From Patescibacteria group bacterium (lineage in GTDB: Bacteria > Patescibacteriota > Minisyncoccia > Phycocordibacterales > Phycocordibacteraceae): 64,000 nt of DNA. Made by a program: the position numbers and the translations under genes. Positions 45,745 to 64,000 of this stretch are shown in pieces; position 1 is the first letter of the stretch, and each line of letters begins with the position of its first letter. A model generated the notes under the pieces. The model ran no database searches. It had not been told where the DNA came from and worked only from the letters and a program-made list of their open reading frames with translations. The stretch covers positions 183,642 through 247,641 of the forward strand of contig JAZKAU010000002.1 of NCBI GenBank assembly GCA_040388985.1. Reading direction: 5' to 3'.

Positions 45745-46342
45745 GAGTTTCGGTTGATGAGTCTGGCACGGCGGCTAGGACAGGTGATGCTTCTCCTTCG
45801 GGCTTTGGCGCGGTAGCGCCTGCCTTCGGATCTCGCTCGATGATGGTAGCGAAGCCCTTAGGGGCTCGCGCTACCGGGTCAGCGATGCGATACGCGTACG
45901 GTATGAGCAAGAGGAACTTCTCGAGCCGGGTCTTGAGGAAGGCTTCTTCCATGCCCTTATAACGTCCCTTGAGGAAGAGCTCCGCACGGACCCGGTGACC
46001 CTCAGCCAGCCATTCGGCCGCTTTCCGAGCCTTCAGACGCATATCGTTCTCGCCGGTGCCGACCTTTATCTGCACTTCCTTGGTTTCCGAGACCTTTGCC
46101 TTAGCCCTGGCGGCGCTCTCCTTCTTCTTCAGCTCGTACTGAAATTTACCATAATCCATGATTTTCGCAACGGGCGGGGCCGCATTCGGCGAGATCTCGA
46201 TAAGGTCAAGGCCGGCTGCCTGGGCAGCTTTCAGGGCGTCTGCGCTTGAAATAACGCCCAGATTCTCACCTGCAGCGCCGATAACGCGCAATTGCGGCGC
46301 GCCTATCTCGCGATTTATACGTACTTTCTCGTTAGTTGCCAT
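45734..46342 (-). CDS. infC: translation initiation factor IF-3
   Basis: RINREIGAPQLRVIGAAGENLGVIS...LDLIEISPNAAPPVAKIMDYGKFQYE. Confidence 0.92.
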   Translation of the reverse strand: MATNEKVRINREIGAPQLRVIGAAGENLGVISSADALKAAQAAGLDLIEISPNAAPPVAKIMDYGKFQYELKKKESAARAKAKVSETKEVQIKVGTGENDMRLKARKAAEWLAEGHRVRAELFLKGRYKGMEEAFLKTRLEKFLLLIPYAYRIADPVARAPKGFATIIERDPKAGATAPKPEGEASPVLAAVPDSSTETHEN

Positions 46343-49604: not shown

Positions 49605-50147
49605 ATGAAGGCAATCCTTATTCCGGGGAACGGCGGCGGGACGCCGCAGGATAACTGGTTTCCGTATCTGGAGCGCGAGCTTCCGAAGCTTGGTATCGCT
49701 GTTATCAATACTCAGTTCCCTGATCCTGAACTAGCCCGGAAGGAATTCTGGCTCCCATTCATCGCAGGACTCGGCGCAGACGAGGAAACGATACTCATCG
49801 GTCACTCAACCGGAGCCGTTGCCGCGCTTCGGTATGCACAAGAACATAAGATTCTGGGTTCTGTCCTGGTAGGTGCCTCTTATACCGATCTCGGGTACGA
49901 GTCAGAGAGAGAAGGCCAGTACTTTGACGATCCGTGGGATTGGCAGACCATACAGAATAACCAAAGGTGGATCATCGAGTTCGCTTCCACGGATGATCCG
50001 TTCATTCCGATAGAAGAATCACGATTCATTCATGAAAGTCTCGCTACTTACTATCACGAATACACGGAGAAGGGGCACTTCGGACACGGCGATACTCCCT
50101 TGCTTGAGTTTCCGGAATTGGTAGAGGCAATAGCCGGAAAGCTGTAG
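49605..50147 (+). CDS. RBBP9/YdeN-like serine hydrolase (alpha/beta)
   Basis: ILIPGNGGG..., GHSTGA nucleophile elbow, ...DDPFIP...HFGH; the ATG at 49605 avoids overlap with the upstream gene. Confidence 0.6.
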   Translation: MKAILIPGNGGGTPQDNWFPYLERELPKLGIAVINTQFPDPELARKEFWLPFIAGLGADEETILIGHSTGAVAALRYAQEHKILGSVLVGASYTDLGYESEREGQYFDDPWDWQTIQNNQRWIIEFASTDDPFIPIEESRFIHESLATYYHEYTEKGHFGHGDTPLLEFPELVEAIAGKL

Positions 50148-50151
50148 AGCG

Positions 50152-50739
50152 ATGAAGCCGATCCTCTTCATTGATTTTGACGGGACGCTCTGCCATGACC
50201 GCTTCTGGCGTAGTCTTCCGAAAGAGGAGTACGAGAAGACTCGGGAACTGCTCTTCTCGGACGACAAGACGTATGTGAGGGAATGGATGAAAGGGAAACA
50301 TACGGCAGAAGAAGTAAATGAGAAGCTTGCCGAGCATCTCGGTATCCCGTTTGAAGTGCTATGGAACGTATTCGTGCAGGATGCCAAGACTATGCGTGTC
50401 TCTAAAGAGGTGCTCGAAGCCATAGGACGCCTTCGGAGCAGGTACACGACCGTTCTGCTTACTGTGAACATGGACAGCTTCTCGAGATTCACCGTTCCTG
50501 CGCTCGGCCTGGACGGCTACTTCGACGCGATCAGCAATTCTTACTATGAAGGGAAATTCAAGGTCGATAACGGCGGCGAGATATTCAGAGAATATCTCGA
50601 TAGGTTTTCCGCTCCTCTGGCGACCAGCGTCCTCATAGACGACTCGCTCGATGCTTGCGAGACCTTCAGATCGCTCGGTGGTATCGCGCATCCGGTAACT
50701 CCTGAAAAGGATCTCGCGTACTACGTTCAGAAGCTCTAA
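50152..50739 (+). CDS. HAD-superfamily hydrolase
   Basis: ILFIDFDGTLCHD (DxDGT motif I) ... LIDDSLDACE (motif IV). Confidence 0.65.
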   Translation: MKPILFIDFDGTLCHDRFWRSLPKEEYEKTRELLFSDDKTYVREWMKGKHTAEEVNEKLAEHLGIPFEVLWNVFVQDAKTMRVSKEVLEAIGRLRSRYTTVLLTVNMDSFSRFTVPALGLDGYFDAISNSYYEGKFKVDNGGEIFREYLDRFSAPLATSVLIDDSLDACETFRSLGGIAHPVTPEKDLAYYVQKL

Positions 50740-50744
50740 GGTAT

Positions 50745-51179
50745 ATGAAAGTCAGGTTCCGAAAGGGCTATATCTTGCTTATAACCCCGAGCCTTGTCCG
50801 TTTCCTAGGTACTCTCACCACAGGTGAGAGCTATGCAAAAGGATTCGCTCTCTTCCCGTTCATCGGTGTTACGAAAGAGGAATTCATGCAGCCATGGCTC
50901 ATCAATCACGAGCTGATTCACTTCCGGCAATCTCTCGAATTACTTTTCGTGGGCCACATGCTCCTTTCGTTCGTGGAGAGAATTTACGCTCGCTTCGTTC
51001 TCAAGATGAACAAGATGGAGCGGTATCTGTATGCGGCTGCTGAGCAAGAAGCGTATCGGAATCAGCATGACCCGGAGTATCTCAAGAATCGGAAACCTTG
51101 GTCAGTCTTTTGGTATGTGAGGAACAAGAGGGAATTCACTTTTGGAGAGAAGTTGGGAGATATCGTATATCTGGATTAA
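50745..51179 (+). CDS. hypothetical protein with HExxH motif (possible metallopeptidase-like)
   Basis: NHELIHFRQ, with a downstream E..AY; low GC. Confidence 0.35.
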   Translation: MKVRFRKGYILLITPSLVRFLGTLTTGESYAKGFALFPFIGVTKEEFMQPWLINHELIHFRQSLELLFVGHMLLSFVERIYARFVLKMNKMERYLYAAAEQEAYRNQHDPEYLKNRKPWSVFWYVRNKREFTFGEKLGDIVYLD

Positions 51180-51271
51180 GTCTTGGCAGGGAAGGGTCTT
51201 GGTGGGTCGAATCTATTGACCTTAACCACCTCTTCATATAAGATTAGGTAATCTAACTATTAGATACTGAA

Positions 51272-51691
51272 ATGAAAGACACGACCAAGAATAGCCTGTC
51301 CGAGCTGCTACTCGCGCTTCGCAGGAAGATAAACGAGAGCGTGAAGGAGAAAGGCCTTAAGGACGAGCTTACGGTGTCGCAATTCGAAGTGCTCTGGTTC
51401 ATCGGCCCTGCGGGCCGCAAGAGCATGGAGAGTATCGCCACCTATCTCAACATCAAGCCGCCGTCCGTGACCGTGCTCATCGATAAGCTCGAGAAGGCAG
51501 GACTGGTCACGCGCGAGAAGGACGGTGAGGATCGCCGCATAATCCACATCGTGCTTACCGAGAAGACGAAGCAGCAGCTTGTCGCCTTCAAGGAAAAGAA
51601 GGAAGCGGTCTTCAACGAACTTCTCTCCCGGCTTTCTTCCAAGGACGCCCAAGAGCTTGAGCGCATCCTTCTGCTCTTAATAGCCCCGTAG
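51272..51691 (+). CDS. MarR family transcriptional regulator
   Basis: LTVSQFEVLWFIGPAGRKSMESIATYLNIKPPSVTVLIDKLEKAGLVTREKD. Confidence 0.75.
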   Translation: MKDTTKNSLSELLLALRRKINESVKEKGLKDELTVSQFEVLWFIGPAGRKSMESIATYLNIKPPSVTVLIDKLEKAGLVTREKDGEDRRIIHIVLTEKTKQQLVAFKEKKEAVFNELLSRLSSKDAQELERILLLLIAP

Positions 51692-51709
51692 TCATCCACC
51701 CAGATACAC

Positions 51710-52990
51710 ATGAAACACGCCGTATTTACATTCTTGAATAAGCCTGCGCTCGTCGCCGGACTCTCGCTCGTCGTCGCGGTTGCCATAGGTGCAGCGGTTG
51801 CCGTAGCTGGTAATGCTTCGCGCACGCCGCAGTTCGTCCTTGCTGCTCCTGGCTCTATCTCGGTGGGCGGACAGAACACTTCAACCTCTTCCGTGCAGAG
51901 CCTGACGCTCGGCTTCCTCGCTGGCGGACGGATACAGGACGTGTCGGTGAAGGCAGGGGATGCGGTCAAGAAGGATCAGGTTCTCGCTACGCTCGACCCT
52001 GAGAACACGGCGGGAGCCATCACGCAGGCTCGTGCAGCGTATGCACTTGCTACTGCTGCGTATCAGAAAGTGGTGAACGGCGCTACGGGCCCTGCCATCG
52101 ACGCCGCCAAAGCCACGGTGAACACGGCAGCGGTCAATCTTCAACAGGTAACCCGTCAGCAGGAGGTTGCGGTGGCAAATGCGTACACCAGCCTCCTTAA
52201 TGCGACGCCGCAGGCGCTCACGAATAATCCGGGAAACCTCGATGACGCGCCGCCTACCATCACGGGCAGCTATACGCTCGGCAAGGAGGGCGACATCATC
52301 GTCGAGACCTACGGCTCCGGAGCGGATTCAGGCGTATCCTTCCGCGTGTCGGGGTTGGTGACGGGCGGCGGCTCGGTCACTACGCTCACGCCTGAAGCCC
52401 TTGGTAATTCCGGCCTCTATATACAGTTTCCTGAAGGAGCTCGTGCTGGCCGTACGTGGATAATCTCCCTCCCGAACACCAAGGCTCCGGATTACATCAC
52501 TAAGTACAACGCGTATCAGGCCGCGCTGCAGGCGCACGACCAGGTCATAGCGAGCGCGAAGGCTGCTCTCGACCAGGCGCAGTCGAATCTGGGTGTCGTC
52601 GTGCAAGCTGCGCGTCCCGAGGATGTCGCAGCGGCGCAGGCGCAGGTACAGAGCGCGCAAGGCGCGCTCCAGATAGCGCAAGCCGCGTATGACGCGCGCG
52701 TCATACGCGCTCCCGGCGACGGAACCGTGACCGCAGTTCATATCACACCGGGACAGATAGCGGCTCCGAACGCGCCTGCTATCGATCTTTCCGGAACGTC
52801 ATTCGCTAAGAGCGTGGCGGTCATGGTGCCGAGCAGCGCGATAGTCGATCGCGATGGAAAGAAGTACGTGGAGGTTAAGACAGCCACCGGCGTAGAAGAG
52901 CGCGAGATCACGACCGGTATCAGTGACGCTACTGATACCGAAGTAGTAAGCGGCCTCTCCGCGGGCGAGTCGGTAGCTGTTTCGCAATAA
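51710..52990 (+). CDS. efflux periplasmic adaptor (HlyD/MFP family)
   Basis: Signal/TM; biotinyl-lipoyl-like hairpin (GGRIQDVSVKAGDAVKKDQVLATLD ... RVIRAPGDGTVTAVHITPGQ); coiled-coil. Confidence 0.65.
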   Translation: MKHAVFTFLNKPALVAGLSLVVAVAIGAAVAVAGNASRTPQFVLAAPGSISVGGQNTSTSSVQSLTLGFLAGGRIQDVSVKAGDAVKKDQVLATLDPENTAGAITQARAAYALATAAYQKVVNGATGPAIDAAKATVNTAAVNLQQVTRQQEVAVANAYTSLLNATPQALTNNPGNLDDAPPTITGSYTLGKEGDIIVETYGSGADSGVSFRVSGLVTGGGSVTTLTPEALGNSGLYIQFPEGARAGRTWIISLPNTKAPDYITKYNAYQAALQAHDQVIASAKAALDQAQSNLGVVVQAARPEDVAAAQAQVQSAQGALQIAQAAYDARVIRAPGDGTVTAVHITPGQIAAPNAPAIDLSGTSFAKSVAVMVPSSAIVDRDGKKYVEVKTATGVEEREITTGISDATDTEVVSGLSAGESVAVSQ

Positions 52991-53010
52991 GGCTTGAATA
53001 ATCTCTATCT

Positions 53011-53652
53011 ATGAATACTGAACAAAAGGAAAAGACGGGCGTATTCAAGAAGCCGTGGGTGCAGAGCCTCATCGCTGTGGTCGTCATATTCGGCGCGCTC
53101 GGCGGCTTCCTCTACTGGCAGTCAGCAGCGAACACCATTGCCATAGACGACTCGTATCTCGATGCGCCTATCGCGAACATCGCGCCGTCTGCTCCGGGTG
53201 CTCTGAACCAACTCTTCGTGAAGGAAGGCGACCGCATAGCTGCGAGCTCGCCGGTGGCGGTTGTTGGTTCCGAGACGCTCTACGCGAAGGAGGGCGGCAT
53301 CATCGCCTCCGCACCGAACGTCGTCGGTTCGTATTTCGCCCCTGGCCAGACGGTGGTCTCGGTCATCGCGGACCAGAAGATGCGCGTCATCGGTTCCATC
53401 GACGAGACGAAAGGCCTGAGCCGGATCGCGCCCGGACAGAAGGTGACATTCACGGTCGACGCCTTCTCCGGAAAGACCTATCAAGGAGTGGTCGACGAAG
53501 TGAGCCCTGCCTCAAGCGACACCGGCATCGCCTTCTCTATATCCGACAAGCGGCCGGTGAAGAAGTTCGATGTGTATATGCGCTTCGACGCGTCAGCATA
53601 TCCAGAACTTAAATCCGGTATGTCCGCGAAGGCGCGCATCCACCTCAAATAA
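53011..53652 (+). CDS. efflux membrane fusion protein (EmrA-like HlyD family)
   Basis: TM, then LFVKEGDRIAASSPVAVV ... IDETKGLSRIAPGQKVTFTVDAF; precedes the MFS pump. Confidence 0.65.
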   Translation: MNTEQKEKTGVFKKPWVQSLIAVVVIFGALGGFLYWQSAANTIAIDDSYLDAPIANIAPSAPGALNQLFVKEGDRIAASSPVAVVGSETLYAKEGGIIASAPNVVGSYFAPGQTVVSVIADQKMRVIGSIDETKGLSRIAPGQKVTFTVDAFSGKTYQGVVDEVSPASSDTGIAFSISDKRPVKKFDVYMRFDASAYPELKSGMSAKARIHLK

Positions 53653-53655
53653 TCC

Positions 53656-55170
53656 ATGGCAGTCGGGGACACGAACGCTCCGTCAGGACACTCGCCGTGG
53701 ATGGTACTGGCTACCGTGATGGTGGGGACGCTCCTCATCGGGCTCGACCGTACCGTCGTGAACCTCGGCCTTCCGGGGATGATAAGCGACTTCCACATTA
53801 CGGTGTCGAATGCCGGATGGATAGCTACGGGCTACATCATCTCGAATGCCGTCTTCGTACCGGTCTTCGGAAAGCTCGGCGACAAGGTCGGGAATCGTAA
53901 TATCTACTTCTGGGCCTTCATCGGCTTCATTGTCTCGTCGGTGGCTGCAGGAGCTGCATGGAACCTTCCGTCGATGGTCGTCTTCCGCGTCTTGCAGGGA
54001 CTGGTCGGTGCTGCGATCTACCCGACCGCGATGGCGCTCATCGCCCGCACCTTCACGGACCCGAACGCCCGTACGCAGGCACTCGGCATATGGTCGGCCT
54101 CGTTCGCTGTCTCGGCCGTTCTGGGTCCGCTCATCGGCGGTCCGCTTATCGATAATTTCTCGTGGCGCTGGCTCTTTTATATAAATCTTCCGGTGGGCAT
54201 CCTCGGCATCTTTATGACGCTTGCGTATCTTCCGCATGATAAGCCCGCAGATACCGTCCCCGGCTTCGATTATAAGGGCGCGGTCGCCCTCGGCGTCGCG
54301 CTCTCCGCGCTCGTCCTCGTCCTTGATCGGGGAAGCGAGTGGGGATGGATGTCGCTCGCCAGTATGCTCGCCTATGCGGTGGTAGTCGTCTTCAGCATCA
54401 TCTTCTACTTCATTGAGAAATACGAGAAAGATCCCGTCGTCGACCTCAAGCTCTTCACTAATCCCATATTCTCGAACATCCTCATCCTCTCCTTCCTGTC
54501 GTTTGGCGGCATGATGGGAGCGATGTTCCTGCTGCCGGTCTTCGCGCAGACATACCTAGGCTTCAACGCGACCCAGACCGGCCTTCTCTTCGTGCCGATG
54601 GCGCTTACCATGCTCATCTCTGCTCCGCTCGGCGGCCGCTTGTCGCGTGTGATACGCCTGCGCTACTTGGTCGCCTTCGGCATGGGGCTTGCAGCCTTCG
54701 GCATCTATCTCTTCTCCGGGCTCGACGTGAAGACCAATGAGCTTGATCTCATGCTGCCGCTTGTTGTCTTCGCTGCGGGGCTGGGCCTTGGCCTTGCGCC
54801 TATGACGGCCGCCGCGACCAATGCGGTCGCGGCGAACGAAGTGGGCGTCTCGTCCGCCGTCCTTAATCTCGTACGCAATATCGCAGGCGCCGTAGGTATC
54901 GCCTTCTTCGGCACTATACTCACCAGCATCATCGGCTCGAACGTCATACGCATCGGGCAGGATGCGATCATTCACACTACTAACCCGCAGATGCTGCAGA
55001 CCATCAGCACGCTCATCATCCTCAAGGCGCAAGTAGACGCCTACGCGGAGGTCTTCCTTATCGCCTCAGGCATCATGGCGCTCGGCGTCATCGCCTCGCT
55101 CTTCCTGAACGAGCCGACGCCTCGGACCGTTCCTCCAGGCGACTCCGCAGCGTCACTGGCAATCCATTAA
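53656..55170 (+). CDS. MFS multidrug efflux transporter (DHA2/EmrB-like, 14 TM)
   Basis: GLDRTVVNLGLPGM motif A region; 504 aa; operon with the adaptors and MarR. Confidence 0.75.
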   Translation: MAVGDTNAPSGHSPWMVLATVMVGTLLIGLDRTVVNLGLPGMISDFHITVSNAGWIATGYIISNAVFVPVFGKLGDKVGNRNIYFWAFIGFIVSSVAAGAAWNLPSMVVFRVLQGLVGAAIYPTAMALIARTFTDPNARTQALGIWSASFAVSAVLGPLIGGPLIDNFSWRWLFYINLPVGILGIFMTLAYLPHDKPADTVPGFDYKGAVALGVALSALVLVLDRGSEWGWMSLASMLAYAVVVVFSIIFYFIEKYEKDPVVDLKLFTNPIFSNILILSFLSFGGMMGAMFLLPVFAQTYLGFNATQTGLLFVPMALTMLISAPLGGRLSRVIRLRYLVAFGMGLAAFGIYLFSGLDVKTNELDLMLPLVVFAAGLGLGLAPMTAAATNAVAANEVGVSSAVLNLVRNIAGAVGIAFFGTILTSIIGSNVIRIGQDAIIHTTNPQMLQTISTLIILKAQVDAYAEVFLIASGIMALGVIASLFLNEPTPRTVPPGDSAASLAIH

Positions 55171-55198
55171 TTATGACGGAGTGTTCTACTGATCTTAC

Positions 55199-56320
55199 CT
55201 AGAATAAAGGAATCAAATTCCCGTCTTTGACCACCTCGATCTTCACGGGCGTGGTGTCGATCGCATGGTCCTTATTGAAGGAGACGGTGCCGCTCGGCGT
55301 CTCGAATGAATGCGTGGCGAGGTAGGGAGCTACGTCAGCTAGATTCTTGGTGGCAGCTATAGCGTGCGCCATCACGTAGATGCTTTCATAGCTCTTCTCC
55401 GCCGTGTGGGTCGCAAGAACTCCATAGCGCTTCTGGTAGAGCTGCTGGAAACGGGCAGAGCTTGATTCCCAGTCGAGTACGACCACTCCCTCAAGAAGGG
55501 TCTTGTCCGCGGTCGGCGCTCCGAACGAGTCGATGATACCGTAGTAGCTTATGACGGTCGGATGGTAATCGAGATTTCGCGCCTGGGTCAGGAAGGTCAC
55601 CGGATCGATGTCGACCATATCGAGGAATACGGCATCGACGCCTTCCTGCTTGAGCTTGATGATGGTAGTCCGGAAATCATTATTACCGATCGACGTGTAG
55701 GCGTCGTCGACGATAGGACCGCGATCAAGCTCCGTCATCGTGGCTCCGAGCGTCGTCGCGATCTGCGTCCCGAATGTTGACTTGAAGTGGACGACAGCTA
55801 GTTTCTGTATAGGACTTTGCGCGAGGTATGGCTTCAGACCCACGATGACTTTGCTGAAATCAGGCATGAGCACGAAACTATTTCCCGAAGGTTCGAGGCC
55901 GCCCGGTATGCGCAGGTTTGCGGGAGATATGAAGGCGACATGCTCCGAGTCAGCGACCGGGAAGAGGGGAATGGTGGCGAAGTCGAAGTTTCCGCCGACG
56001 ATGCCCGCGATTCCGTCAGCATCCACGAGCTTCCTGAAGGCCGAGATGCCAGTCGCCGGAGTGGTAGCATCGTCTTCTACCGTAAGCGATACAGGACGGC
56101 CGTCGATACCGCCGTTCGCATTTATCTCGTCTATGGCTATCTGCATCGCGTTACGTGCGGGTTCACCGTAGCTCGCGGCGATGCCTGTAAGGGAGAGGAC
56201 TGCGCCTATCTTGATAGGATTCTCGCTTGAGACGGCCTTGGTCCCGCTTCCGTGATGAATGAGCCATGCGCCTGCTGCGATGACGAGTATGAGACCCAAG
56301 ATCCCGAGTGCTTTTTTCAT
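55199..56320 (-). CDS. ABC transporter substrate-binding lipoprotein (LivK/branched-chain amino-acid type), orphan
   Basis: Lipobox-like N-terminus; IKIGAVLSLTGIAASYGEPARNAMQIAIDEINANGGIDGRPV type-I PBP. Confidence 0.65.
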   Translation of the reverse strand: MKKALGILGLILVIAAGAWLIHHGSGTKAVSSENPIKIGAVLSLTGIAASYGEPARNAMQIAIDEINANGGIDGRPVSLTVEDDATTPATGISAFRKLVDADGIAGIVGGNFDFATIPLFPVADSEHVAFISPANLRIPGGLEPSGNSFVLMPDFSKVIVGLKPYLAQSPIQKLAVVHFKSTFGTQIATTLGATMTELDRGPIVDDAYTSIGNNDFRTTIIKLKQEGVDAVFLDMVDIDPVTFLTQARNLDYHPTVISYYGIIDSFGAPTADKTLLEGVVVLDWESSSARFQQLYQKRYGVLATHTAEKSYESIYVMAHAIAATKNLADVAPYLATHSFETPSGTVSFNKDHAIDTTPVKIEVVKDGNLIPLF

Positions 56321-56450
56321 GTAGTAAGAATCAGATGCGGCTAATGACCAGCAGTATGCGACGCATAATCAAAACGTCAACGAATAGTCATGATTCTATT
56401 TCCAATGAATGACGACCAAATAGCTTGATATATAAGAATAAGGAAGTATA

Positions 56451-56472
56451 TTAGTCATATATATATGACTAA
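56451..56472. promoter_or_regulatory. 22-bp perfect palindrome TTAGTCATATATATATGACTAA spanning the start codon of the TrmB-like gene (putative autoregulatory operator)
   Basis: Perfect dyad centred at 56461/56462; the ATG at 56465 lies within it; a related half-site AATAGTCATGA occurs at 56384-56394. Confidence 0.45.
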
Positions 56473-57217
56473 CGGAGAGACGAACTATCTGAAAAGCGCC
56501 CTGAAGACCGGGCTTTCACCCAAGGCAGCAAGCGTATATGTGGTGTTGCTTGAAGCCGGCACGGGGCTGGCTCCCAAGAACATCATCACGCGCACCGGCC
56601 TTCACCGGCAGTACGTCTATGACGCTCTGCGGGAGCTTCAGGACGAGGGACTCGTCGCAGCGCTCGGCGCGGGACGCCGTATCCGCTATCAAGCCGCAAG
56701 TCCTGAACGCCTTTCACAGGAAGCTGAGAAGAAGCGCATCGACGTGCTCGACGGCGTGCAGAACCTCATGCGGCTGTATGAGCGATCTCCAGCGGGTGTG
56801 GTCGAGGTGGTGCGCGGAGCCAAGGCCGTTATCGAAAGCGAGTTCGCGCTCCTGCGAGAAGCGGAAGAAGGCGGATTTCTCGACGTGGTCGGAGGGGCCG
56901 GTATGAACTGGGTCCGCCTATTTGAGGACCGACTTGAGGAGTATGAGAACCTCCGGCGCGAGAAGCGTATCAAGCTGCGATACATCGGCGATGTCGACGA
57001 TGTGCGGCATAACTGGGAGGAAAGCATCATCGAGAACGAGTCTCGTATAATCCCGAACATCGGTCATGTCGTGAACGTGAATATCCGGCCCGACAGCGTG
57101 AATTTCAATATCTACGAGCCCGAGATTCTCGTGGTCCGGGTGCGCAATGCAGCAGCAGTCGCAAGCCAGCGCGCGCTGTTCGAGGTGCTGTGGAACGCGG
57201 CAAGACAAAGTAACTAG
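56465..57217 (+). CDS. TrmB-like transcriptional regulator (paralog 2)
   Basis: N-terminal wHTH (ASVYVVLLEAGTGLAPKNIITRTGLHRQYVYDALRELQDEGLV); same architecture as 6103 and 61277. Confidence 0.55.
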   Translation: MTNGETNYLKSALKTGLSPKAASVYVVLLEAGTGLAPKNIITRTGLHRQYVYDALRELQDEGLVAALGAGRRIRYQAASPERLSQEAEKKRIDVLDGVQNLMRLYERSPAGVVEVVRGAKAVIESEFALLREAEEGGFLDVVGGAGMNWVRLFEDRLEEYENLRREKRIKLRYIGDVDDVRHNWEESIIENESRIIPNIGHVVNVNIRPDSVNFNIYEPEILVVRVRNAAAVASQRALFEVLWNAARQSN

Positions 57218-57316
57218 AGTAACTGAAAACAGAATTGCTTTATAGTCGGCCTTTAATCTCAGCGCGGCCCAGCCAATTGATTTCCTTCATTGCGTACCTG
57301 GTATATCATTACTTCC

Positions 57317-57835
57317 ATGAAAGAGGACGGAAGGCTGCATTTCATTATGACTGGAGGAACGATCGATTCTTCTTATAATCCAGTAAAGGAAACCACGGTG
57401 CCGAGCGAGCATTCATATATTCCAATGTTCGTCCCGTTTCTCCAACTTTACGAAGAAGTTGAATTCACAGAGGTATTCATGAAAGACAGTAGGGACATTA
57501 CGGACTCAGATCGTTCCAAGGTACTAGAAGCCATAGAAAAAAGTTCCTCAAAAAGAATTATCATTACGCATGGTAGTTATACGGTCGCTGAGACAGCGAG
57601 ATATGTCCAAGAGTATTTGCAGAGCAAGGATCGGACGATTATCTTCGTATGCTCTCTCATTCCCATCGAAGGTTTTGCTCCGACAGATGCAGGCTTTAAT
57701 CTAGGCTACGCCGTAGGAAAGTCACAGAATCTTGGAGAAGGGGTGTATGTCTGTATGAACGGAAGAGTCTTCAGTCCCGACGAAGTAGTCAAGATATTGG
57801 AGACCGGTAGATTTGCCTCGACGTACACCAAGTAA
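57317..57835 (+). CDS. asparaginase N-terminal-domain-like protein (truncated/stand-alone)
   Basis: HFIMTGGTIDS ... IIITHGSYTVAETARY ... IIFVCSLIP..TDAGFNLGYAV follow the asparaginase N-domain order, but there is no C-terminal domain; low GC. Confidence 0.5.
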   Translation: MKEDGRLHFIMTGGTIDSSYNPVKETTVPSEHSYIPMFVPFLQLYEEVEFTEVFMKDSRDITDSDRSKVLEAIEKSSSKRIIITHGSYTVAETARYVQEYLQSKDRTIIFVCSLIPIEGFAPTDAGFNLGYAVGKSQNLGEGVYVCMNGRVFSPDEVVKILETGRFASTYTK

Positions 57836-57943
57836 GCTCCATATTTTGTACATGTTAGAACTTCTCATCGTTATTTCTTTATAAATCGGAGACAGATATT
57901 CTGTCAGTAACTCGGCGCCAGATCAGGATGTATAATCACGTGT

Positions 57944-58297
57944 ATGAATAAGATCTTAGGCATAGGCGGACTGTTCTTTCGTGCGAATGATCCGGCAGCC
58001 TTGAAGTCCTGGTATGTCGATGTACTCGGCATCGTTATCAAGGAATACGTCTGGCAGCAGGAAGCAGGCCCTACCGTACTCGAGCCGTTCGCGATGGACT
58101 CAGACTATTTTCCACTCGATAAGTCATGGATGATCAATTTTCGCGTGTCCGATCTGGAAGCAGTGATTGCAGACCTCAAGGGAAAGGGTGTCAACGTAGA
58201 AGTCCGCGATGAGTGGAATGCGTCGCCTGAAATGGGGAAGTTCGCTCGGGTACAGGATCCGGAAGGGAATCCTGTCGAGCTTTGGCAACCGGCGTAG
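57944..58297 (+). CDS. VOC/glyoxalase-bleomycin-resistance family protein
   Basis: 117 aa with a beta-alpha-beta-beta-beta module (GGLFFRANDPAALKSWYVDVLG ... VQDPEGNPVELWQ). Confidence 0.6.
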   Translation: MNKILGIGGLFFRANDPAALKSWYVDVLGIVIKEYVWQQEAGPTVLEPFAMDSDYFPLDKSWMINFRVSDLEAVIADLKGKGVNVEVRDEWNASPEMGKFARVQDPEGNPVELWQPA

Positions 58298-58310
58298 AGG
58301 CACACTGATA

Positions 58311-58778
58311 ATGAATCGCAATAGGCAACGACTCATTCCGGTAACATTTCTCGTTGGCTATGGTGCGCTACTGATCAAGGTCATGGTGTTCAAGGACCTG
58401 CCCATCATACGGATCGGTCATCTGATGCTGAGGTTTGGGGGCGCGGACGCAAACGGTCAGGCGAACTTCGTGCCGTTCAGGACCATCTTTCCGTACCTAC
58501 TCGGCTATAAGGGATGGATTATCGCGGGCATCAATCTGGTCGGGAATGTAGGCCTGCTTGTGCCGATAGGAATCTTGGCCCCGTTCGTCTTCCAGAACCT
58601 GACGTGGAAGAAGTCCCTCGTTCTTGCATGCGTCGCCGGTCTTGTCATCGAAGGCATGCAGGTACTATTTCGCGTCGGTATATTCGACATCGACGATGTG
58701 ATACTGAATGCACTCGGTGTCATGATCGGATACGGCGTATGTAGAATTTTCGTAAACGTGGAAAGCGGTTCGTTCTGA
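58311..58778 (+). CDS. VanZ-like membrane protein
   Basis: NFVPFRT...NLVGNVGLLVPIGIL...IEGMQVLFRVGIFDIDDVILNALGVMIGYG (FDxDDxxxNxxG). Confidence 0.65.
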   Translation: MNRNRQRLIPVTFLVGYGALLIKVMVFKDLPIIRIGHLMLRFGGADANGQANFVPFRTIFPYLLGYKGWIIAGINLVGNVGLLVPIGILAPFVFQNLTWKKSLVLACVAGLVIEGMQVLFRVGIFDIDDVILNALGVMIGYGVCRIFVNVESGSF

Positions 58779-58825
58779 CCGTTGCTACACAAGATACTCA
58801 TGGATTACCGTTATACTTAGAGCAT

Positions 58826-59203
58826 ATGAACTACCTCGAAACATTCTCAGGATATTCAGTAGATAGTATCGCGGCAGCTGAGGCCTTTTATCGCGATACG
58901 CTCGGACTTACGGTGGAACGCACGAAAGAAGGATTGGAGATAAAGACTCCGAATCAGACCATCTTTCTCTACGAGAAGAGTTCGCACAAGCCAGCGGAGT
59001 TCACCGTATTCAATCTTGTAGTTGCTGATATCGACGCTGCGGTCACTGATCTCAAAGCAAAAGGCATGACGTTCGAGACGTACGATGGCATGCACCAGGA
59101 TGAGCAGGGCATAGCACGAGGTAAGGAAGTTGGTATGGGTCCGGATATTGCGTGGTTCAAAGACCCGGCAGGAAACATTCTTTCCGTGCTCGCTAAGGCG
59201 TAA
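58826..59203 (+). CDS. VOC/glyoxalase family protein (second copy)
   Basis: FYRDTLGLTVERT ... FKDPAGNILSVL. Confidence 0.6.
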   Translation: MNYLETFSGYSVDSIAAAEAFYRDTLGLTVERTKEGLEIKTPNQTIFLYEKSSHKPAEFTVFNLVVADIDAAVTDLKAKGMTFETYDGMHQDEQGIARGKEVGMGPDIAWFKDPAGNILSVLAKA

Positions 59204-59350
59204 AAAGAAGCACTGCTCCTCATACTTCCTGCGGGTGGCGGATAACTAGGTATTACCATGAGTACACGAAAGCCAGTCAGTGTATGCACCATGAGTAGGT
59301 TGGGTCAGAGGGATTAGAACCCACCGAGTGGTGGTACAATTCGAGTGCCA
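59204..59350 (+). repeat. intergenic repeat copy A (conserved 60-nt block + GATTAGAACC) with mini-ORF MSTRKP... (59258-59317)
   Basis: GCTCCTCATACTTCCTGCGGGTGGCGGATAACTAGGTATTACCATGAGTACACGAAAGCCAG is 53/60 identical to copy B. Confidence 0.6.
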
Positions 59351-59367
59351 GAATTAATGAAAAAGCC

Positions 59368-59847
59368 ATGAATATAGAACGTAAGGAAGCGGTATCAAAG
59401 CCAGCTTCTGTTGAGCTTCAGGCAGAACGCGAGAATTGTCTTCGCGAAATGCTTCCCAAACTTCGAGAGATTGCTGCGCCTCAAACCAGGATGCTTCAGG
59501 CAGAGTTTGCAGTTGGTATAGAGAAAAATGTAGAGCGGATAAAACACATTGCCAGTCCGAGCGAGCTTGATGCGATGGCACAAAAGTTAGTCGCGCTCGG
59601 CATGCCAGCTGAACCTGATGATGCTGGTAACCCAGGCAGTTTCAACAGTCTTCCGTTCCGGCTGACAACATTAAGCAGAGAATTGACTGAACTGGAAAGT
59701 GAGAAAGATGAAGAGCGGGAACTCGGAGCTCACTCCTTCAGGCCAAAGTTCGAACATGGCTCCCGCCTTGAACGTATAGATTTCGCAGTTAAGGAAATCG
59801 GGAGATGGATAGGGAAGAGTGAAACTTACCTAAGTGGAGGGTTTTAG
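59368..59847 (+). CDS. hypothetical protein (159 aa)
   Basis: ORF preceded by repeat A and followed by a terminator; no recognisable motif. Confidence 0.45.
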   Translation: MNIERKEAVSKPASVELQAERENCLREMLPKLREIAAPQTRMLQAEFAVGIEKNVERIKHIASPSELDAMAQKLVALGMPAEPDDAGNPGSFNSLPFRLTTLSRELTELESEKDEERELGAHSFRPKFEHGSRLERIDFAVKEIGRWIGKSETYLSGGF

Positions 59848-59850
59848 CCA

Positions 59851-59893
59851 ACCACCAAAAGCAGAAAACCGCCTCGGGCGGTTTTCTGCTTTT
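59851..59893. terminator. palindromic terminator (AAAACCGCC-N4-GGCGGTTTT family)
   Basis: CCAAAAGCAGAAAACCGCC-tcgg-GCGGTTTTCTGCTTTTGG. Confidence 0.6.
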
Positions 59894-59897
59894 GGTG

Positions 59898-60052
59898 TAA
59901 ATGGATATCCAAGGTTAGAACTTCGCTGATGCTAAACAGCTCCTCATATTTCCTACGAGTGGCGGATGACTGGGCATCACCATGAGCACACGAAAGCCAA
60001 TACGTTCCTACGACTGCTCAAAATGAGCTTGAGTGATTAGAACCTACTAATA
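59898..60052 (+). repeat. intergenic repeat copy B (full length: AAATGGATATCCAAGGTTAGAACTTCGCTG + conserved 60-nt block + GATTAGAACC) with mini-ORF MSTRKPIRSYDCSK (59982-60026)
   Basis: Its 5' part is shared with copy C (61221-61300) and its 3' part with copy A. Confidence 0.6.
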
Positions 60053-60055
60053 TTT

Positions 60056-60865
60056 ATGGAATTTGTTAGGCTCATGGATATGGATAATCTGGTGAATTTG
60101 AGGGGAATTGCAGAGCTTTTCGATTCTCATAATTCAGACAAATTCATTTCTCGTCTCGCGAGTATGTTCATGACACAAGAACCAGCATGTATTGTAGTTC
60201 GCGGTATTCCGGTAACTGGAGACCCAAGGCCAGATGACTTAGGAATGGAAATCAATCCTGGTCACAAAAAACAAGCAGGCCAGAAGTACAGCGAGGAAGT
60301 TTTCAAACTGCTAAATGAGCAGATTGGAGGCAATCGCATCCAGTCAGAGATGGGGAATGTTATTCGCTCAGTAGACCCAACAAATCCTGCTTACATTAAA
60401 GTTGAGCCGACTCATACGCATCCGGATGATCGAATCAATAATATGTTTTGCAATATCTCGGACGGAGCGATATCTAATGTGACTTTCGTGGATGATGTAT
60501 GGAAGAACGCCACGGAAGAGGAAAGGGCGCTCTTTCAAAAGCATAAGTTCATAGATTTTGACGGCTCCCAAGTCTTATGGAACGAGGACTTCGTTCGTTG
60601 CGACGACATATTTGAACGTCTCGAAAACGCATCTCCGTTCGAAAATAATGAAAGTCTCTCCAACACAGCAGTCATTCTTGCTGAGGGAATTCGTGCAAAT
60701 GCGCGTGAGTATCACTTGATAGAAGGAGATATGGTTTTCTTTGCTCAGATGAAAACACTGCGAGGAGCTCCTGCATACAAGACTCCTGAATCAGGTATAG
60801 AAAAGAGATGGTACCAGAGTATGACGTTTGGAGAACGGAGAGGAGTTTTTGTTTACAACCTCTGA
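60056..60865 (+). CDS. hypothetical protein, possible Fe(II)/2OG-dependent (TauD-like) oxygenase
   Basis: THTHPDD (HxD-like) and a distal REYHLIEGDMVFF (His/Arg) region; low GC; weak assignment. Confidence 0.4.
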   Translation: MEFVRLMDMDNLVNLRGIAELFDSHNSDKFISRLASMFMTQEPACIVVRGIPVTGDPRPDDLGMEINPGHKKQAGQKYSEEVFKLLNEQIGGNRIQSEMGNVIRSVDPTNPAYIKVEPTHTHPDDRINNMFCNISDGAISNVTFVDDVWKNATEEERALFQKHKFIDFDGSQVLWNEDFVRCDDIFERLENASPFENNESLSNTAVILAEGIRANAREYHLIEGDMVFFAQMKTLRGAPAYKTPESGIEKRWYQSMTFGERRGVFVYNL

Positions 60866-60874
60866 AGCTGCTTC

Positions 60875-60908
60875 AAACTAGAAAACCGCCCCATGGGGCG
60901 GTTTTCTA
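60875..60908. terminator. palindromic terminator (same family)
   Basis: CTAGAAAACCGCCCC-at-GGGGCGGTTTTCTAG. Confidence 0.6.
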
Positions 60909-61012
60909 GAATTCTAGATTTCGTATATGTTGTGGCGTCTGAATTTCAGCGAGAACTGAGAGCTGCAATTCAGACATCCTACCAAGATATATTCACTACG
61001 TTCGTTATTTTG

Positions 61013-61025
61013 GTGGAGGTGGGGA
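61013..61025. repeat. 13-nt duplicate of tmRNA 3' end (GTGGAGGTGGGGA; minus strand TCCCCACCTCCACCA with CCA)
   Basis: Identical to 63160-63172 at the ssrA 3' end; on the minus strand it reads GTGGGTCAACCTCCCCACCTCCACCA, a T-arm/acceptor-like 3' fragment with no 5' half. Confidence 0.45.
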
Positions 61026-61220
61026 GGTTGACCCACGAATCACTAACCAGAATATTTCGTTCCTCATATTCTGCTAAGTGTTCTCGGGCCCGCCTCGCCG
61101 TTTCTCTCAGAATCGAAACATGCTCCGGCTAACTCATTGTCTTCAAGAGCGGAGCAATCCGCTCTTTCCCACTCTACAAACGAAAATGGCCCACATGAGC
61201 GGGTTTATTTTCGTACTTGT

Positions 61221-61300
61221 GGAAATGGATATCCAAGGTTAGAACTTCGCTGCTGGAATGCAGTTCCTCACATTTCCTATCTGTCGTGGACAGTTGGTAG
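61221..61300 (+). repeat. intergenic repeat copy C (5' part of B) overlapping the 3' end of the TrmB-like gene
   Basis: AAATGGATATCCAAGGTTAGAACTTCGCTG is identical to copy B; the last 7 codons (LPTVHDR*) of the minus-strand gene are read from repeat sequence. Confidence 0.55.
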
Positions 61301-62083
61301 TTTCATGTCGGCTGCCTGCTGCCATGCGAGTTCAAATAAGACTCGTCTGTAGAAGTCGGCAATATCGGCGTTCTCGAGTATTGTGCACGTCAGCTTTCCT
61401 TCGGTAAAGGACTGAATAGCAATGGAGTTATTCCAACTGAATATACCTGCTTGCCAGGAAAGTTCCTCCGGCATGAGTCGCACTCGAATCCGATACTCAT
61501 CTGATTTTTTGTACACGCGCTCGGCAAACTCGCACGGCGGGAAGATAAGTCGTGTACGGATACCCTTATCAGAACGCCTTTGGAAGTAATGTTCGAGATA
61601 TTCAGGATCCACGAGTTCTGAAAACAAACGCACATTAGTAAAGACAAGCACTTCACTCTTTGCCGAAAATGTCTCTTCTAGCATCTTTTTAAAGCCCTCG
61701 ACGCCTTCATAGAGCTTTACGTTCGGCACCCCCACCCCTGATGGAGGACTAACCTTCTCCATAAGACTCACTGCGTAACTAATATTGCTTCGCAGTGCGG
61801 CGATGTCGTTCTCTCGCTGTTGGAGCAGAGAAAAGAGAACCTTTGGATTCTCTGCACCTATATATCGCTTCTTACCTCGGCGAGATTCATACAAAAGACC
61901 TTTTTTAAGAAGTTGCTCGACTTCGCTGTGTACTGTCGTGCGATTTCTGCCTACTCCCTTTGCCAGAGACTGGATAGTTTCAGTACCGGATTCTAAACAG
62001 CGCAAGTACACCTGGGCCTCGTGCGGGTTGCAGCCGAAATGACCAAGCTGAGCGACTACGTGCTGCCTATCAGGAAAATTCAT
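61277..62083 (-). CDS. TrmB-like transcriptional regulator (paralog 3)
   Basis: N-terminal wHTH (QVYLRCLESGTETIQSLAKGVGRNRTTVHSEVEQLLKKGLL); low GC. Confidence 0.55.
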   Translation of the reverse strand: MNFPDRQHVVAQLGHFGCNPHEAQVYLRCLESGTETIQSLAKGVGRNRTTVHSEVEQLLKKGLLYESRRGKKRYIGAENPKVLFSLLQQRENDIAALRSNISYAVSLMEKVSPPSGVGVPNVKLYEGVEGFKKMLEETFSAKSEVLVFTNVRLFSELVDPEYLEHYFQRRSDKGIRTRLIFPPCEFAERVYKKSDEYRIRVRLMPEELSWQAGIFSWNNSIAIQSFTEGKLTCTILENADIADFYRRVLFELAWQQAADMKLPTVHDR

Positions 62084-62170
62084 AAATGTAGAGTATATTT
62101 CGACACTTTTATTTGCAAGTGGTTATCTAAAAATGATAATTAAAATATATCTTTCTGAGCCATAGCCATT

Positions 62171-63070
62171 GTGCATACTTCTAACTTTGACGGGTATATG
62201 ATGACAGTTTACTTTTTGTTCATGAGCAAATCACCAGTTATATACGGACAAATATCCAAAACCCGCTTAAAAAAACTCCCTTGGGGAAGCCACGGTATCC
62301 TCTGGGATGGTTTCGATAATCTCAAAACTTCTGGATTTCTGGTCGACTTTAAGAAGGAAACCTCCTATGAAGCCTGGGCGGATGTTGATTCAGAAAATCT
62401 ATGCCTAGTCGAAGCGGGAAGCGCTACCCTTGAGTGGGCAGGGAAGAAATATCTGATAAAGAACAAGGCGTTCGTGTTTAAGGTGTATCCCGGTCAATCG
62501 CCGACCGTACGACCTGGAAAGAATGGCTTTCGTGTCCTTTCGGTCCAAATGCGACACGCAAAGCAGTCCACTCGAAATAAGGATTCGTTTGATATATCAA
62601 AACTAGATGTTATCGATACTCGAAGAGTACCTGCACAAGTGTACGAGTTTGAAACACTCGCACAGGAAATATTCACGCCAAACTATAAGAACGGACTCGG
62701 ACTTATCAAATTTGCCTTTGTAAATCCGATACCTATACATCGGCATCCGTATTCCGCTCGTCTCATTCGACCGATTTCCGGCAAAGGATATACATATATT
62801 GAACCTAACATTTATGAGGCCCATGCGGATACGTACGCGCTTATACCGACCAACACGATCCACACCAATGGGAATATTCCGGGTAACGTCCTTCGACTGT
62901 ACGCCGTACAACTCCCCTGGGTGCCCAGCGGCATAGACGAGGAAAACATCGCCGGATCACCTCGCTTTGTGAAATATGTCGGAATCACTCCGCCTAAAAA
63001 GATTTGGAAGACAAAAAAACAATTTGAAACATTGATCCATACCCTTGATACCCATATATCAAAGCGTTAG
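62171..63070 (+). CDS. cupin-like protein
   Basis: PIHRHPYSA ... E ... IHTNGN fit the His pattern of cupin motifs 1 and 2; the start may be an internal ATG (62198 or 62222); low GC. Confidence 0.4.
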   Translation: MHTSNFDGYMMTVYFLFMSKSPVIYGQISKTRLKKLPWGSHGILWDGFDNLKTSGFLVDFKKETSYEAWADVDSENLCLVEAGSATLEWAGKKYLIKNKAFVFKVYPGQSPTVRPGKNGFRVLSVQMRHAKQSTRNKDSFDISKLDVIDTRRVPAQVYEFETLAQEIFTPNYKNGLGLIKFAFVNPIPIHRHPYSARLIRPISGKGYTYIEPNIYEAHADTYALIPTNTIHTNGNIPGNVLRLYAVQLPWVPSGIDEENIAGSPRFVKYVGITPPKKIWKTKKQFETLIHTLDTHISKR

Positions 63071-63097
63071 TTGTATTGAGAGTAAATCAGTAGCAAA

Positions 63098-63126
63098 CAG
63101 AAAGCCGCCTTGTGGGCGGTTTTCTA
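63098..63126. terminator. palindromic terminator (same family)
   Basis: AGAAAGCCGCC-ttgt-GGGCGGTTTTCT. Confidence 0.55.
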
Positions 63127-63160
63127 ATGTTCTATATGTTTCCACATAGTTCTATATCAG

Positions 63161-63587
63161 TGGAGGTGGGGAATAATGAGTTCCCGTCCGACCTGGCATT
63201 GAGAGCGAGTCTACGACGCGTAGCTCGTATTGAATATTCAGCAGGAACATAAGAATGCGAGCGAAAACATTCCTGCCTACATCCCTAATTTAGGCGATCC
63301 GTTCGGGCGTACGGATACCGATCTCGTAGAGAATTCCGCCCGATACTCCAGCTACGAGAACCTGGGATATCGAACGTCGCTATGCGAGACGAGCCGAAGC
63401 TCAAGCCTTACGCAGTAACGAACGCAAAGTTGAAGTCACTCATCGCGAACGGTGAGAGAACAGCCTTCCTTGCGCTTGCAACAGTGTTGTTTGCAAGTAT
63501 TGGTATATGCGTTGGTATGGCGGGACAGCATACTTCCCCCGCGTCGCACGTTTCTCAAGGTTCAGACCGTCAAAGCCGGTCACCCCC
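63161..63587 (-). ncRNA. ssrA: tmRNA (transfer-messenger RNA)
   Basis: The minus-strand 5' end GGGGGTGACCGGCTTTGACGG matches the GGGG.UGA..GG.UUCGACGG consensus. The 3' end GGACGGGAACTCATTATTCCCCACCTCCA has a 5-bp T-stem, a 7-nt loop and a 7-nt acceptor strand that pairs with the 5' end, including the G3·U wobble. An in-frame tag-like ORF ends ...SDFNFAFVTA-TAA, and a GAGC-TTCG-GCTC hairpin follows it. The gene is adjacent to smpB. Confidence 0.8.
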
Positions 63588-63642: not shown

Positions 63643-64000
63643 TTACTGACGTTTGCCGCGCATCGCTCTTTCTATCTCGCGCTGCGCATCCTTCTTCTTC
63701 AAAGTCTCGCGCTTGTCGGACTTATTCTTGCCGCGCACGATAGCGACGCGCACTTTCAGGTACCTGCCTGCATTATACACCTCAATTGGCACTATTGTCA
63801 ATCCTTTCTTCGACTCCTCGTCGGCGAGTTCCGCGATTTCCGACTTCTTGAGGAGGAGGCGGCGCGCGCGTTCAGGGTCATATCCGGCTGGTGTATTTCC
63901 GGCCTGGTAGGGAGGTATGCTCATGCCGACCACGAAGGCCTCGCCGCCGCGGATGATGATGCGCGCGCCGTCGAGCTTTCCCTGCTTAGCTCGGACGGCT
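63643..64000 (-). CDS. smpB: SsrA-binding protein SmpB (partial, continues beyond window)
   Basis: C-terminal KGLTIVPIEVYNAGRYLKVRVAIVRGKNKSDKRETLKKKDAQREIERAMR with a basic tail; the reading frame is open to the window edge. Confidence 0.85.
   Translation of the reverse strand, partial: AVRAKQGKLDGARIIIRGGEAFVVGMSIPPYQAGNTPAGYDPERARRLLLKKSEIAELADEESKKGLTIVPIEVYNAGRYLKVRVAIVRGKNKSDKRETLKKKDAQREIERAMRGKRQ

Follow-up and report, generated by a model that had tools for sequence, protein, structure and literature searches.

A probable tandem array of small gene cassettes at the 3′ terminus of the transfer-messenger RNA gene in a member of the Paceibacterota

Results

The window analyzed here, a 64,000-nt stretch of contig JAZKAU010000002.1, carries on its minus strand ssrA, the gene for transfer-messenger RNA (tmRNA). 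The region adjoining the tmRNA 3′ end, 59204-63159, is probably the tmRNA-nearest part of a tandem array of cassettes, inserted site-specifically at the 3′ terminus of the tmRNA through a recombinase that acts in trans. We favor site-specific recombination at this terminus because of the anatomy of the junctions, the mimicry of the tmRNA terminus by a conserved boundary element, R, and shuffling at the level of single cassettes among related genomes. A preliminary description of the same DNA had regarded the region as remnants of decayed integrative elements, since no integrase is present; this proved too simple, as the conserved R delimits 27 uniform units across many genomes.

The 13-mer GTGGAGGTGGGGA occurs exactly twice in the window, at 61013-61025 and 63160-63172, and none of 100 dinucleotide shuffles reached two copies. 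The proximal copy (63160-63172, minus strand) is the present tmRNA 3′ end (TCCCCACCTCCAC), with a module junction directly after CCAC, between 63160 and 63159. The distal copy, read on the minus strand in the tmRNA sense, is TCCCCACCTCCACCA (also given as ...GTGGGTCAACCTCCCCACCTCCACCA) and lacks a 5′ half. It belongs to a relic tmRNA 3′ end, TCAACCTCCCCACCTCCACCA (61011-61031, minus strand), which keeps an encoded CCA and likewise lies at a CCAC junction. The relic is identical at 21/21 positions to the tmRNA terminus of L003 and at 20/20 to that of L001 (both ...GGGAGATCAACCTCCCCACCTCCACC); these are the two nearest relatives among the related loci, denoted here by L numbers, with SmpB 84-85% and smpB-ssrA DNA 77-80% identical. 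Past the 21-nt match, the distal fragment shows no relation to tmRNA. The extension of the match to 21 nt of the L003 terminus identifies the distal 13-mer as part of a true tmRNA 3′ end that has been displaced. The two copies and the fragmentary nature of the distal one, both pointed out in the preliminary description, are thus borne out, and the bias toward GGAGG-rich sequence that it had named as a possible trivial cause does not account for similarity of this length. Displaced 3′ fragments present as direct repeats mark islands at the ends of tRNA and tmRNA genes (PMC4383910), and this classical logic explains the 13-mer pair. In the simplest history, the relic is the ancestral tmRNA end, and a later insertion gave the gene a new terminus and moved the old end 2.1 kb. 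Alternatively, the crossover may have occurred within the 13-nt identity, in which case the T-loop part of the relic would be derived from the element.

R is a conserved DNA element of ~150 bp, with a short form of ~83 bp, that reads ...GTTCTAAC-N9-CCAMYTCCAC at its end and there mimics the last 10 nt of tmRNA. Forty copies were found in 27 related genomes or contigs: 13 in 7 reference genomes, identified with an nhmmer profile, and 27 in 20 metagenome contigs, identified among 66 loci obtained by scanning for the GTTCTAAC-N9-CCAMYTCCAC pattern. For the 23 copies whose contig also shows a tmRNA, the position is in every case downstream of it and the orientation the same, and no copy was present in the 10 kb upstream of smpB. 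Full-length R accounts for 30 of the 40 copies, and the 3′ half is best conserved. The short forms start at a nearly constant point (profile positions 65-72 in most, with two shorter ones at 84 and 93); the form seen in the window also occurs in L008, L021, L106, L126 and L140. R is also more strongly conserved among genomes than housekeeping DNA: the window and L008 have 84% identity in R, compared with 69% for the smpB-ssrA DNA of the same pair. Its two GGTTCTAAY motifs are direct rather than inverted repeats.

Several other identities for R were considered and rejected. As a structured RNA, it had no Rfam match at E≤1, and RNAalifold analysis of 29 copies on both strands gave a fold energy of ~0 and no covariation. 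A leader with a small open reading frame (ORF; MSTRKPI..., 19 aa, with the TAG of TTAGAAC as its stop) was discarded in view of several copies that lack the ATG or have a stop at codon 4, and a copy of the tmRNA 3′ domain in view of the absence of similarity past the last ~10 nt. Because RNA structure, a small ORF and wider tmRNA similarity are all lacking, R is read as a DNA-level site. In L005, a diverged R-like element (19226-19365; GGTTCTA at its 5′ side and GGTTCCAA-N17-CCAC at its 3′ side, followed by the trailer P′-1 described below) lies 8.5 kb downstream of ssrA; since the R profile misses this element, the family must extend beyond the 40 counted copies.

The sequences 3′ of CCAC, whether they follow tmRNA or R, fall into a handful of unrelated trailer/terminator families (P′):

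P′-1: (C/T)GATATAGAACTATATGGAAACATATAGAAC, then a terminator
P′-2: ATGGTTTCATTAAAAGGCCC...
P′-3: CTAGTTTCAC...
P′-4: CTATACTCATTTTGAG...

Every P′ family occurs behind tmRNA in some genomes and behind R in others, always with the break at the same nucleotide, the first C of the CCA end. Because tmRNA ends and R ends have these families in common, we conclude that modules are exchanged exactly at the CCAC junction, where the two kinds of end share only ~5-10 nt. Most tmRNA genes in this comparison do not encode the full CCA. P′-1 follows tmRNA ends in L001, L012 and L106 and R ends in at least 8 loci; it forms a 7-bp hairpin with a GAAA tetraloop, then a terminator, and shows compensatory changes (12 copies; 63099-63149 in the window). 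The cassettes may thereby carry a signal for termination or for 3′ processing of pre-tmRNA. A direct repeat of 35-60 nt, composed of CCAC and P′-1, stands on both sides of the first cassette in L001 and L003.

In the tmRNA sense, a unit consists of a P′ trailer/terminator, 0-3 cargo genes in either orientation, and R. The 27 measurable units, in 18 arrays, range in length from 206 to 3046 nt (median 1166 nt). The start of most cargo ORFs lies on the strand opposite to R, at a distance of 5-30 nt from its 5′ end; in about one quarter of cassettes, the cargo is in the sense orientation and ends at R. Since each unit starts with P′, its leading trailer/terminator can serve the upstream tmRNA. Within the window, the array reads from the tmRNA outward as follows, with the relic tmRNA end (61011-61031) lying between C2 and C3:

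63094-63159, minus strand: P′-1 trailer, first segment of cassette C1; 7-bp hairpin with GAAA loop (~63132-63149), then a bidirectional terminator (63099-63125)
62171-63070, plus strand: C1 cargo, cupin-like ORF; weak Cupin_2 (21.3 bits, below cut-off)/AraC_binding; GC 0.446
61277-62083, minus strand: C1 cargo, TrmB-family helix-turn-helix (HTH) regulator; Pfam TrmB, 35.8 bits, E 7.3e-9, above cut-off; GC 0.478
61219-61301, minus strand: R3, short-form R (profile positions 70-152; nhmmer E 1e-20), ending ...GTTCTAACCTTGGATATCCATTTCCAC at the junction and closing C1
61032-61218, minus strand: C2, non-coding unit with a terminator-like hairpin (61188-61205) and no credible ORF
60866-61010, minus strand: leading segment of C3; contains a palindromic terminator (perfect, 16+16; 60878-60909)
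60056-60865, plus strand: C3 cargo, ORF269, a rare orphan family with 9 homologue clusters only
59895-60044, minus strand: R2, full-length R (nhmmer E 3e-40; aligned with 28 other copies), closing C3
59853-59897, inverted repeat: perfect 21+21 palindromic terminator, leading segment of C4
59368-59847, plus strand: C4 cargo, ORF159, no family match
59211-59321, minus strand: R1, R truncated at its 3′ end (profile positions 2-112; nhmmer E 9e-25)

R1 abuts the stop codon of a glyoxalase gene and is the left limit of the recognizable array. The similar terminators and repeat copies of the preliminary description correspond to the three terminators (59853-59897, 60878-60909 and 63099-63125) and the three R copies of this list, and its regulator and cupin genes to the C1 cargo, the cupin assignment being the weaker of the two. 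In L274, from an independent assembly, the gene call for the cupin-like ORF starts at ~62201 and has 289 aa. Nothing significantly tmRNA-like or R-like was detected in 61032-61218, outside the 21-nt relic. ORF269 had been described as TauD-like. It has no Pfam, NCBIfam or PDB sequence match; its fold matches are all to VioC/OrfP/CAS (best E 1.6e-4, TM ~0.4), obtained with a low-confidence model (pLDDT 59). The weak resemblance to clavaminate-synthase-like oxygenases thus stands on the predicted fold and not on sequence, and ORF269 is possibly an iron/2-oxoglutarate (Fe/2OG) oxygenase of this type.

Comparison among genomes indicates that whole cassettes change position. The segment from R through a methyltransferase gene is 98% identical over 968 nt between L101 and L141; almost every mismatch falls within the 5′ portion of R, which leaves the cassette itself nearly identical, yet the preceding cassette differs between the two. 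The ORF269 cassette, third in the window and bounded there by the tmRNA relic, is first after the tmRNA in L273, where it has 85% nucleotide identity, an extra 290-aa gene and a P′-2 trailer and stands directly behind a tmRNA end (...TTCAACTCCCCGCACCTCCAC, broken at the junction). Because the relic bounds the ORF269 cassette, the window has the arrangement expected if it once resembled L273, whose state is the expected precursor of the 2.1-kb insertion. In more distant genomes, the ORF269 homologue is found elsewhere, by a TrmB gene and a tRNA and without R. One such case, L268 (~10790-10865, Ga0163149_10000014), has a homologue of 62% identity that is not at ssrA but immediately upstream of a tRNA gene, in divergent orientation to a gene of the TrmB family, which hints at a second tDNA-linked accessory spot. 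A module of a 178-aa gene and R is also present in five loci with different partner genes (L001, 6143-6679; L090, 2056-2592; L113, 1455-1991; L135, 796-1338; and, as a 213-aa form not adjacent to R, L008, 12253-12894). This orphan family, which has no Pfam, NCBIfam or PADLOC match, lies against the R 5′ end in 4/5 loci at ~80% nucleotide identity; its partner in L001 is an AriA/OLD-like ATPase.

The insertion site was examined by tblastn of window proteins against 80 smpB loci, with tmRNA positions in L022, L034, L030 and L031 taken from Rfam. The host belongs to the Paceibacterota (Parcubacteria, Candidate Phyla Radiation (CPR)), and its partial SmpB is 85-86% identical to SmpB in Paceibacterota metagenome-assembled genomes. 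The adjacency of smpB and ssrA is kept in all relatives, and infC-rplT follows at a widely variable distance:

63643-64000+, minus strand: smpB, 3′ part, running past the window end; Pfam SmpB, E 2.9e-31
63158-63587, minus strand: ssrA; Rfam RF00023, full-length match, 71.1 bits, E 1.5e-26
45734-46342, minus strand: infC, conserved far flank of the variable interval by tblastn synteny, directly following ssrA in distant relatives
45163-45513: rplT, by tblastn synteny
ssrA-infC gap in L022: 342 nt
ssrA-infC gap in L034: 594 nt
ssrA-infC gap in L030: 877 nt
ssrA-infC gap in L031: 1273 nt
ssrA-infC gap in closer relatives showing both genes: 3.4-8.9 kb
ssrA-infC gap in this window: 16.8 kb

In L001, L005 and L008, infC was not met in the ~9.5 kb examined downstream of ssrA. 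Because the gap ranges from 342 nt to 16.8 kb among relatives, ssrA is, judged by these gene orders, an insertion hotspot in the lineage. The insertion at ssrA proposed in the preliminary description is corroborated by the empty junctions in the four relatives with gaps of 342-1273 nt and by the ORF269 cassette that abuts the tmRNA in L273, and the relatives do not show the same gene order without a boundary.

The syntenically variable interval of the window runs from ssrA to infC at 46342, and 59204-63172 is its youngest, tmRNA-nearest, low-GC part. The GC content of 59204-63159 is 0.452, compared with 0.558 for 1-46342, in keeping with the low GC noted earlier, which runs further left to ~57218. 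Low-GC accessory genes identified with Pfam (57290-59203, plus strand; asparaginase-like, glyoxalase, VanZ and glyoxalase/Ble-like; GC 0.479) are probably older cassettes that have lost a recognizable R; a VanZ homologue lies just past an R element in L144. At 57845-57880, overlapping the 3′ end of the asparaginase-like gene, GAGAAGTTCTAAC-N9-ATATGGAGC resembles the R 3′ end, with a profile match that is not significant, and may be the decayed boundary of an older cassette. The segment 46343-57217 has normal GC (0.56) yet is absent or different in most relatives, with parts common to L003 and L120 in the same interval; it encodes two MarR regulators, a fasciclin protein, CcdA/thioredoxin-like proteins, HlyD-like and MFS efflux proteins, a periplasmic binding protein and a second TrmB.

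The window tmRNA, which ARAGORN does not find, has an intact acceptor stem that keeps the G3-U wobble pair. Its T-arm, GGGAA-CTCATTA-TTCCC, is not shared by any relative in a comparison of 3′ ends (window 63158-63587 and the tmRNA 3′ ends of L001, L003, L006, L106, L120 and L140). The clade shows unusual variation in its T-loops, which depart from the canonical sequence (CTCATTA, ATCAAC, TTTCATAG and GTGTCAAAA instead of TTCAAYT); this variation may stem from repeated recombination at the tmRNA 3′ end.

The array is reproduced outside this assembly. In an independent Logan assembly of the same organism, 50080-60907 is present at 100% identity, and a second contig carries smpB, the cupin ORF and an identical TrmB gene in the window's order. 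Population heterogeneity at 60907 was considered and rejected: in this de Bruijn assembly, L272 ends and L274 begins at the palindromic terminator 60878-60909, and the break is therefore attributed to assembly.

Cargo of the arrays, of accessory and defence type, includes APH kinase, an AriA/OLD-like ATPase, a HEPN-like 439-aa protein, a GHKL-like protein with a C5 methylase, a sortase with a surface protein, S-adenosylmethionine (SAM) methyltransferases, Ldh_2, cytochrome-d1-domain proteins, M23 peptidase and YkuD, VanZ, glyoxalase/Ble-like proteins and many orphans. The 439-aa protein has no family match but ends in RNDYAH (R-x4-H, HEPN-like); it is the first gene after ssrA in L141 (5941-7260) and L008 (10926-12251) and is probably an abortive-infection-type defence gene. 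In L104 (873-6402 of the 742-kb contig Ga0163148_10000001) and L143, genes for a 705-aa GHKL-like protein (GHGNGGK), a DnaA_C and sigma70_r4 HTH protein and a C5 cytosine methylase lie by R; the arrangement may represent either a secondary site or a cassette of unusual length.

The absence of an integrase noted in the preliminary description holds: motif, phmmer/jackhmmer and tblastn searches revealed no tyrosine or serine recombinase in the 64-kb window, in the R-bearing contigs or in the 10 kb flanking ssrA on each side in 43 related genome loci. A tyrosine-recombinase motif expression gave no match, nor did phmmer/jackhmmer searches of 2256 ORFs with two tyrosine recombinases and gamma-delta resolvase, and across 252 kb of DNA that bears R, tblastn detected neither a recombinase gene nor a pseudogene or fragment of one. 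A Pfam run on 40 array proteins likewise returned no recombinase, and the units carry no transfer gene. Two R patterns and the window tmRNA end each had 0 matches in IMG/VR. The relic 19-mer had one match (L147), due to chance and located inside an AT-rich coding region without tmRNA or R, and a generic tmRNA-end pattern matched >120 viral contigs and is not specific. A blastn comparison of 59204-63172 with phage and plasmid records gave no match.

Discussion

These observations provide the outline of a possible mechanism. Excised or circular cassettes carrying an R-CCAC/P′ junction would recombine with the CCAC end of the tmRNA or of a resident R, and the incoming cassette would supply a new trailer hairpin and terminator, such that tmRNA expression would survive the insertion. 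In the window, a subsequent event that crossed over at the T-loop or 5′ of it would have replaced the last ~22 nt of the tmRNA and shifted the old end by 2.1 kb; such a replacement would explain the aberrant T-loop. The recombinase would be encoded outside the array and its vicinity, either at another chromosomal location or on a helper element, and would act in trans. Beyond this, we tentatively entertain a broader model, on balance somewhat doubtful, in which R-bounded free cassettes, with R comparable to attC, are inserted and shuffled at the CCAC junction by a recombinase that is not linked to them and that may be chromosomal and may be of a new type; each would bring a replacement tmRNA trailer/terminator, and the site would offer ultra-small CPR genomes a dedicated slot of low risk for defence, resistance and cell-surface genes.

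Several points weigh against insertion by a site-specific recombinase in trans. Site-specific recombination is deduced from junction anatomy only, with no recombinase found, and excision and circular junctions are postulated, none having been observed. Neither dyad symmetry nor a consensus fold, by which core sites would be defined, is seen in R. The relic unit C2 lacks R and needs a second type of event, a T-arm crossover that is not mappable to the nucleotide. For one copy of R (L104/L143), the 9.3 kb upstream contain no tmRNA. Homologous recombination in the repeated R and P′ segments could yield some of the shuffling, and all sequences are metagenome assemblies.

Other origins of the array account for parts of the data. 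Integrase-bearing islands or prophages at ssrA might have lost their integrase and left stacked relics resembling cis-mobilizable elements (CIMEs), with R as an attP arm. There are published precedents for integration with a short direct repeat at the 3′ end of tmRNA, for tandem accretion and for CIMEs without an integrase (PMC4383910; PMC12595487; PMC5704250); the relic at 61011-61031 together with the replaced tmRNA end is a classic displaced-fragment signature, and truncated R copies exist (R1 and the short forms). However, the 27 units in 18 arrays share one compact build (0.2-3 kb) without a recombinase trace in 252 kb, three quarters of the R copies are full length (30/40), the short forms start near one position rather than at random deletion points, a near-identical cassette stands in different array contexts, and no R match in IMG/VR or in phage or plasmid collections reveals an intact parent. 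We therefore consider classical decay unlikely: the uniformity of the units, the lack of a recombinase in 252 kb and the occurrence of the same cassette beside different neighbours favor a cassette system served in trans over independent decay.

An origin that involves no dedicated recombination appears less probable still. R would then be a promoter or leader and P′ a set of trailers/terminators, with variation produced by natural transformation and homologous recombination. Such roles would suit the start of most cargo ORFs close to the R 5′ end on the opposite strand, the RNA-type hairpin and terminator of P′-1 and the identical ~50-nt 3′ segment shared by R copies within one population, as in gene conversion. 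They fit poorly with an exchange point that is sharp at CCAC, having unrelated P′ families on one side and, on the other, either tmRNA or R, which share only ~5-10 nt there; and a promoter has no reason to mimic a tmRNA terminus as the R end does. Sense cargo ends at R in ~1/4 of cassettes, the window R copies have no convincing promoter match, and R lacks a conserved upstream ORF or RNA structure. As for chance through GGAGG-rich bias, or an assembly chimera, the 13-mer is indeed short and purine-rich and the data are all metagenomic, but this explanation is effectively refuted by the shuffles, by the 21-nt match to a sister tmRNA end, by the gene order in the independent Logan assembly and by the recurrence of R arrays in dozens of independent assemblies.

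CPR (Patescibacteria) genomes are tiny and streamlined, and how they acquire accessory genes is little understood. If insertion in trans is correct, a recurrent cassette array in one safe position, next to an RNA gene that is essential, would offer a concrete route of gene flux in CPR and a second modular cassette platform beside integrons, pointing to an undiscovered recombinase. We found no account of tmRNA-linked cassette arrays in CPR in the literature. Island finders that depend on an integrase would overlook such arrays entirely, and the R profile is a practical marker for finding them and their cargo in metagenomes.

Among known systems, tmRNA and tRNA islands with tyrosine integrases (the Islander class, including Pseudomonas I23, I44 and I55, and VPI-1) each encode an integrase, usually by the tDNA, and measure tens of kb. 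Like them, the window has an insertion at the extreme 3′ end of ssrA, an intact regenerated tmRNA, a direct displaced 3′ fragment (13 nt, compared with 14 bp in I55), low-GC accessory/defence cargo and several elements stacked at one site (PMC4383910; PMC12595487), and an empty site exists in relatives; unlike them, its units are only 0.2-3 kb, have no integrase inside and are bounded by a conserved 150-bp R. CIMEs, known with tandem accretion at tRNA genes from the Streptococcus ICESt1/ICESt3 family, stand in tandem at a tDNA 3′ end, are att-flanked, lack an integrase and are mobilized by the integrase of another element (PMC5704250); they are individual decay products of ICEs (integrative and conjugative elements) or IMEs (integrative and mobilizable elements), irregular in content and usually with intact relatives nearby. 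The window units resemble CIMEs in being bounded by CCAC junctions and devoid of recombination or transfer genes, and differ from them in being miniature, uniform and recurrent in many genomes, without a parental element in the collections searched.

In integrons and in clusters of attC sites lacking integron integrases (CALINs), cassettes of 1-3 genes are bounded by a conserved recombination-type site, a CALIN being an attC cluster without an integrase. The arrays described here similarly have 1-3-gene cassettes, diverse cargo, the same cassette in different positions and no linked integrase. In contrast to attC, R has no imperfect palindrome or fold, and its terminal GGTTCTAAY motifs are direct repeats; the anchor is the end of the tmRNA gene rather than attI, with no IntI-like tyrosine recombinase within 10 kb on either side, and the cassettes carry their own terminators and cargo of mixed orientation. 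The pdif modules of Acinetobacter plasmids, which lack a recombinase, are bounded by 28-bp Xer sites in inverted pairs and are shuffled by host XerC/XerD in trans. They are comparable as small recombinase-less units with short conserved sites and in the host-type shuffling in trans proposed here, whereas the sites in the present arrays are direct, chromosomal and located at ssrA, and nothing dif-like was recognized. Thus, without a linked recombinase, the array is set apart from integrase-bearing tmRNA islands, CIMEs and integrons by its miniature uniform units, its 150-bp R and its built-in tmRNA trailers.

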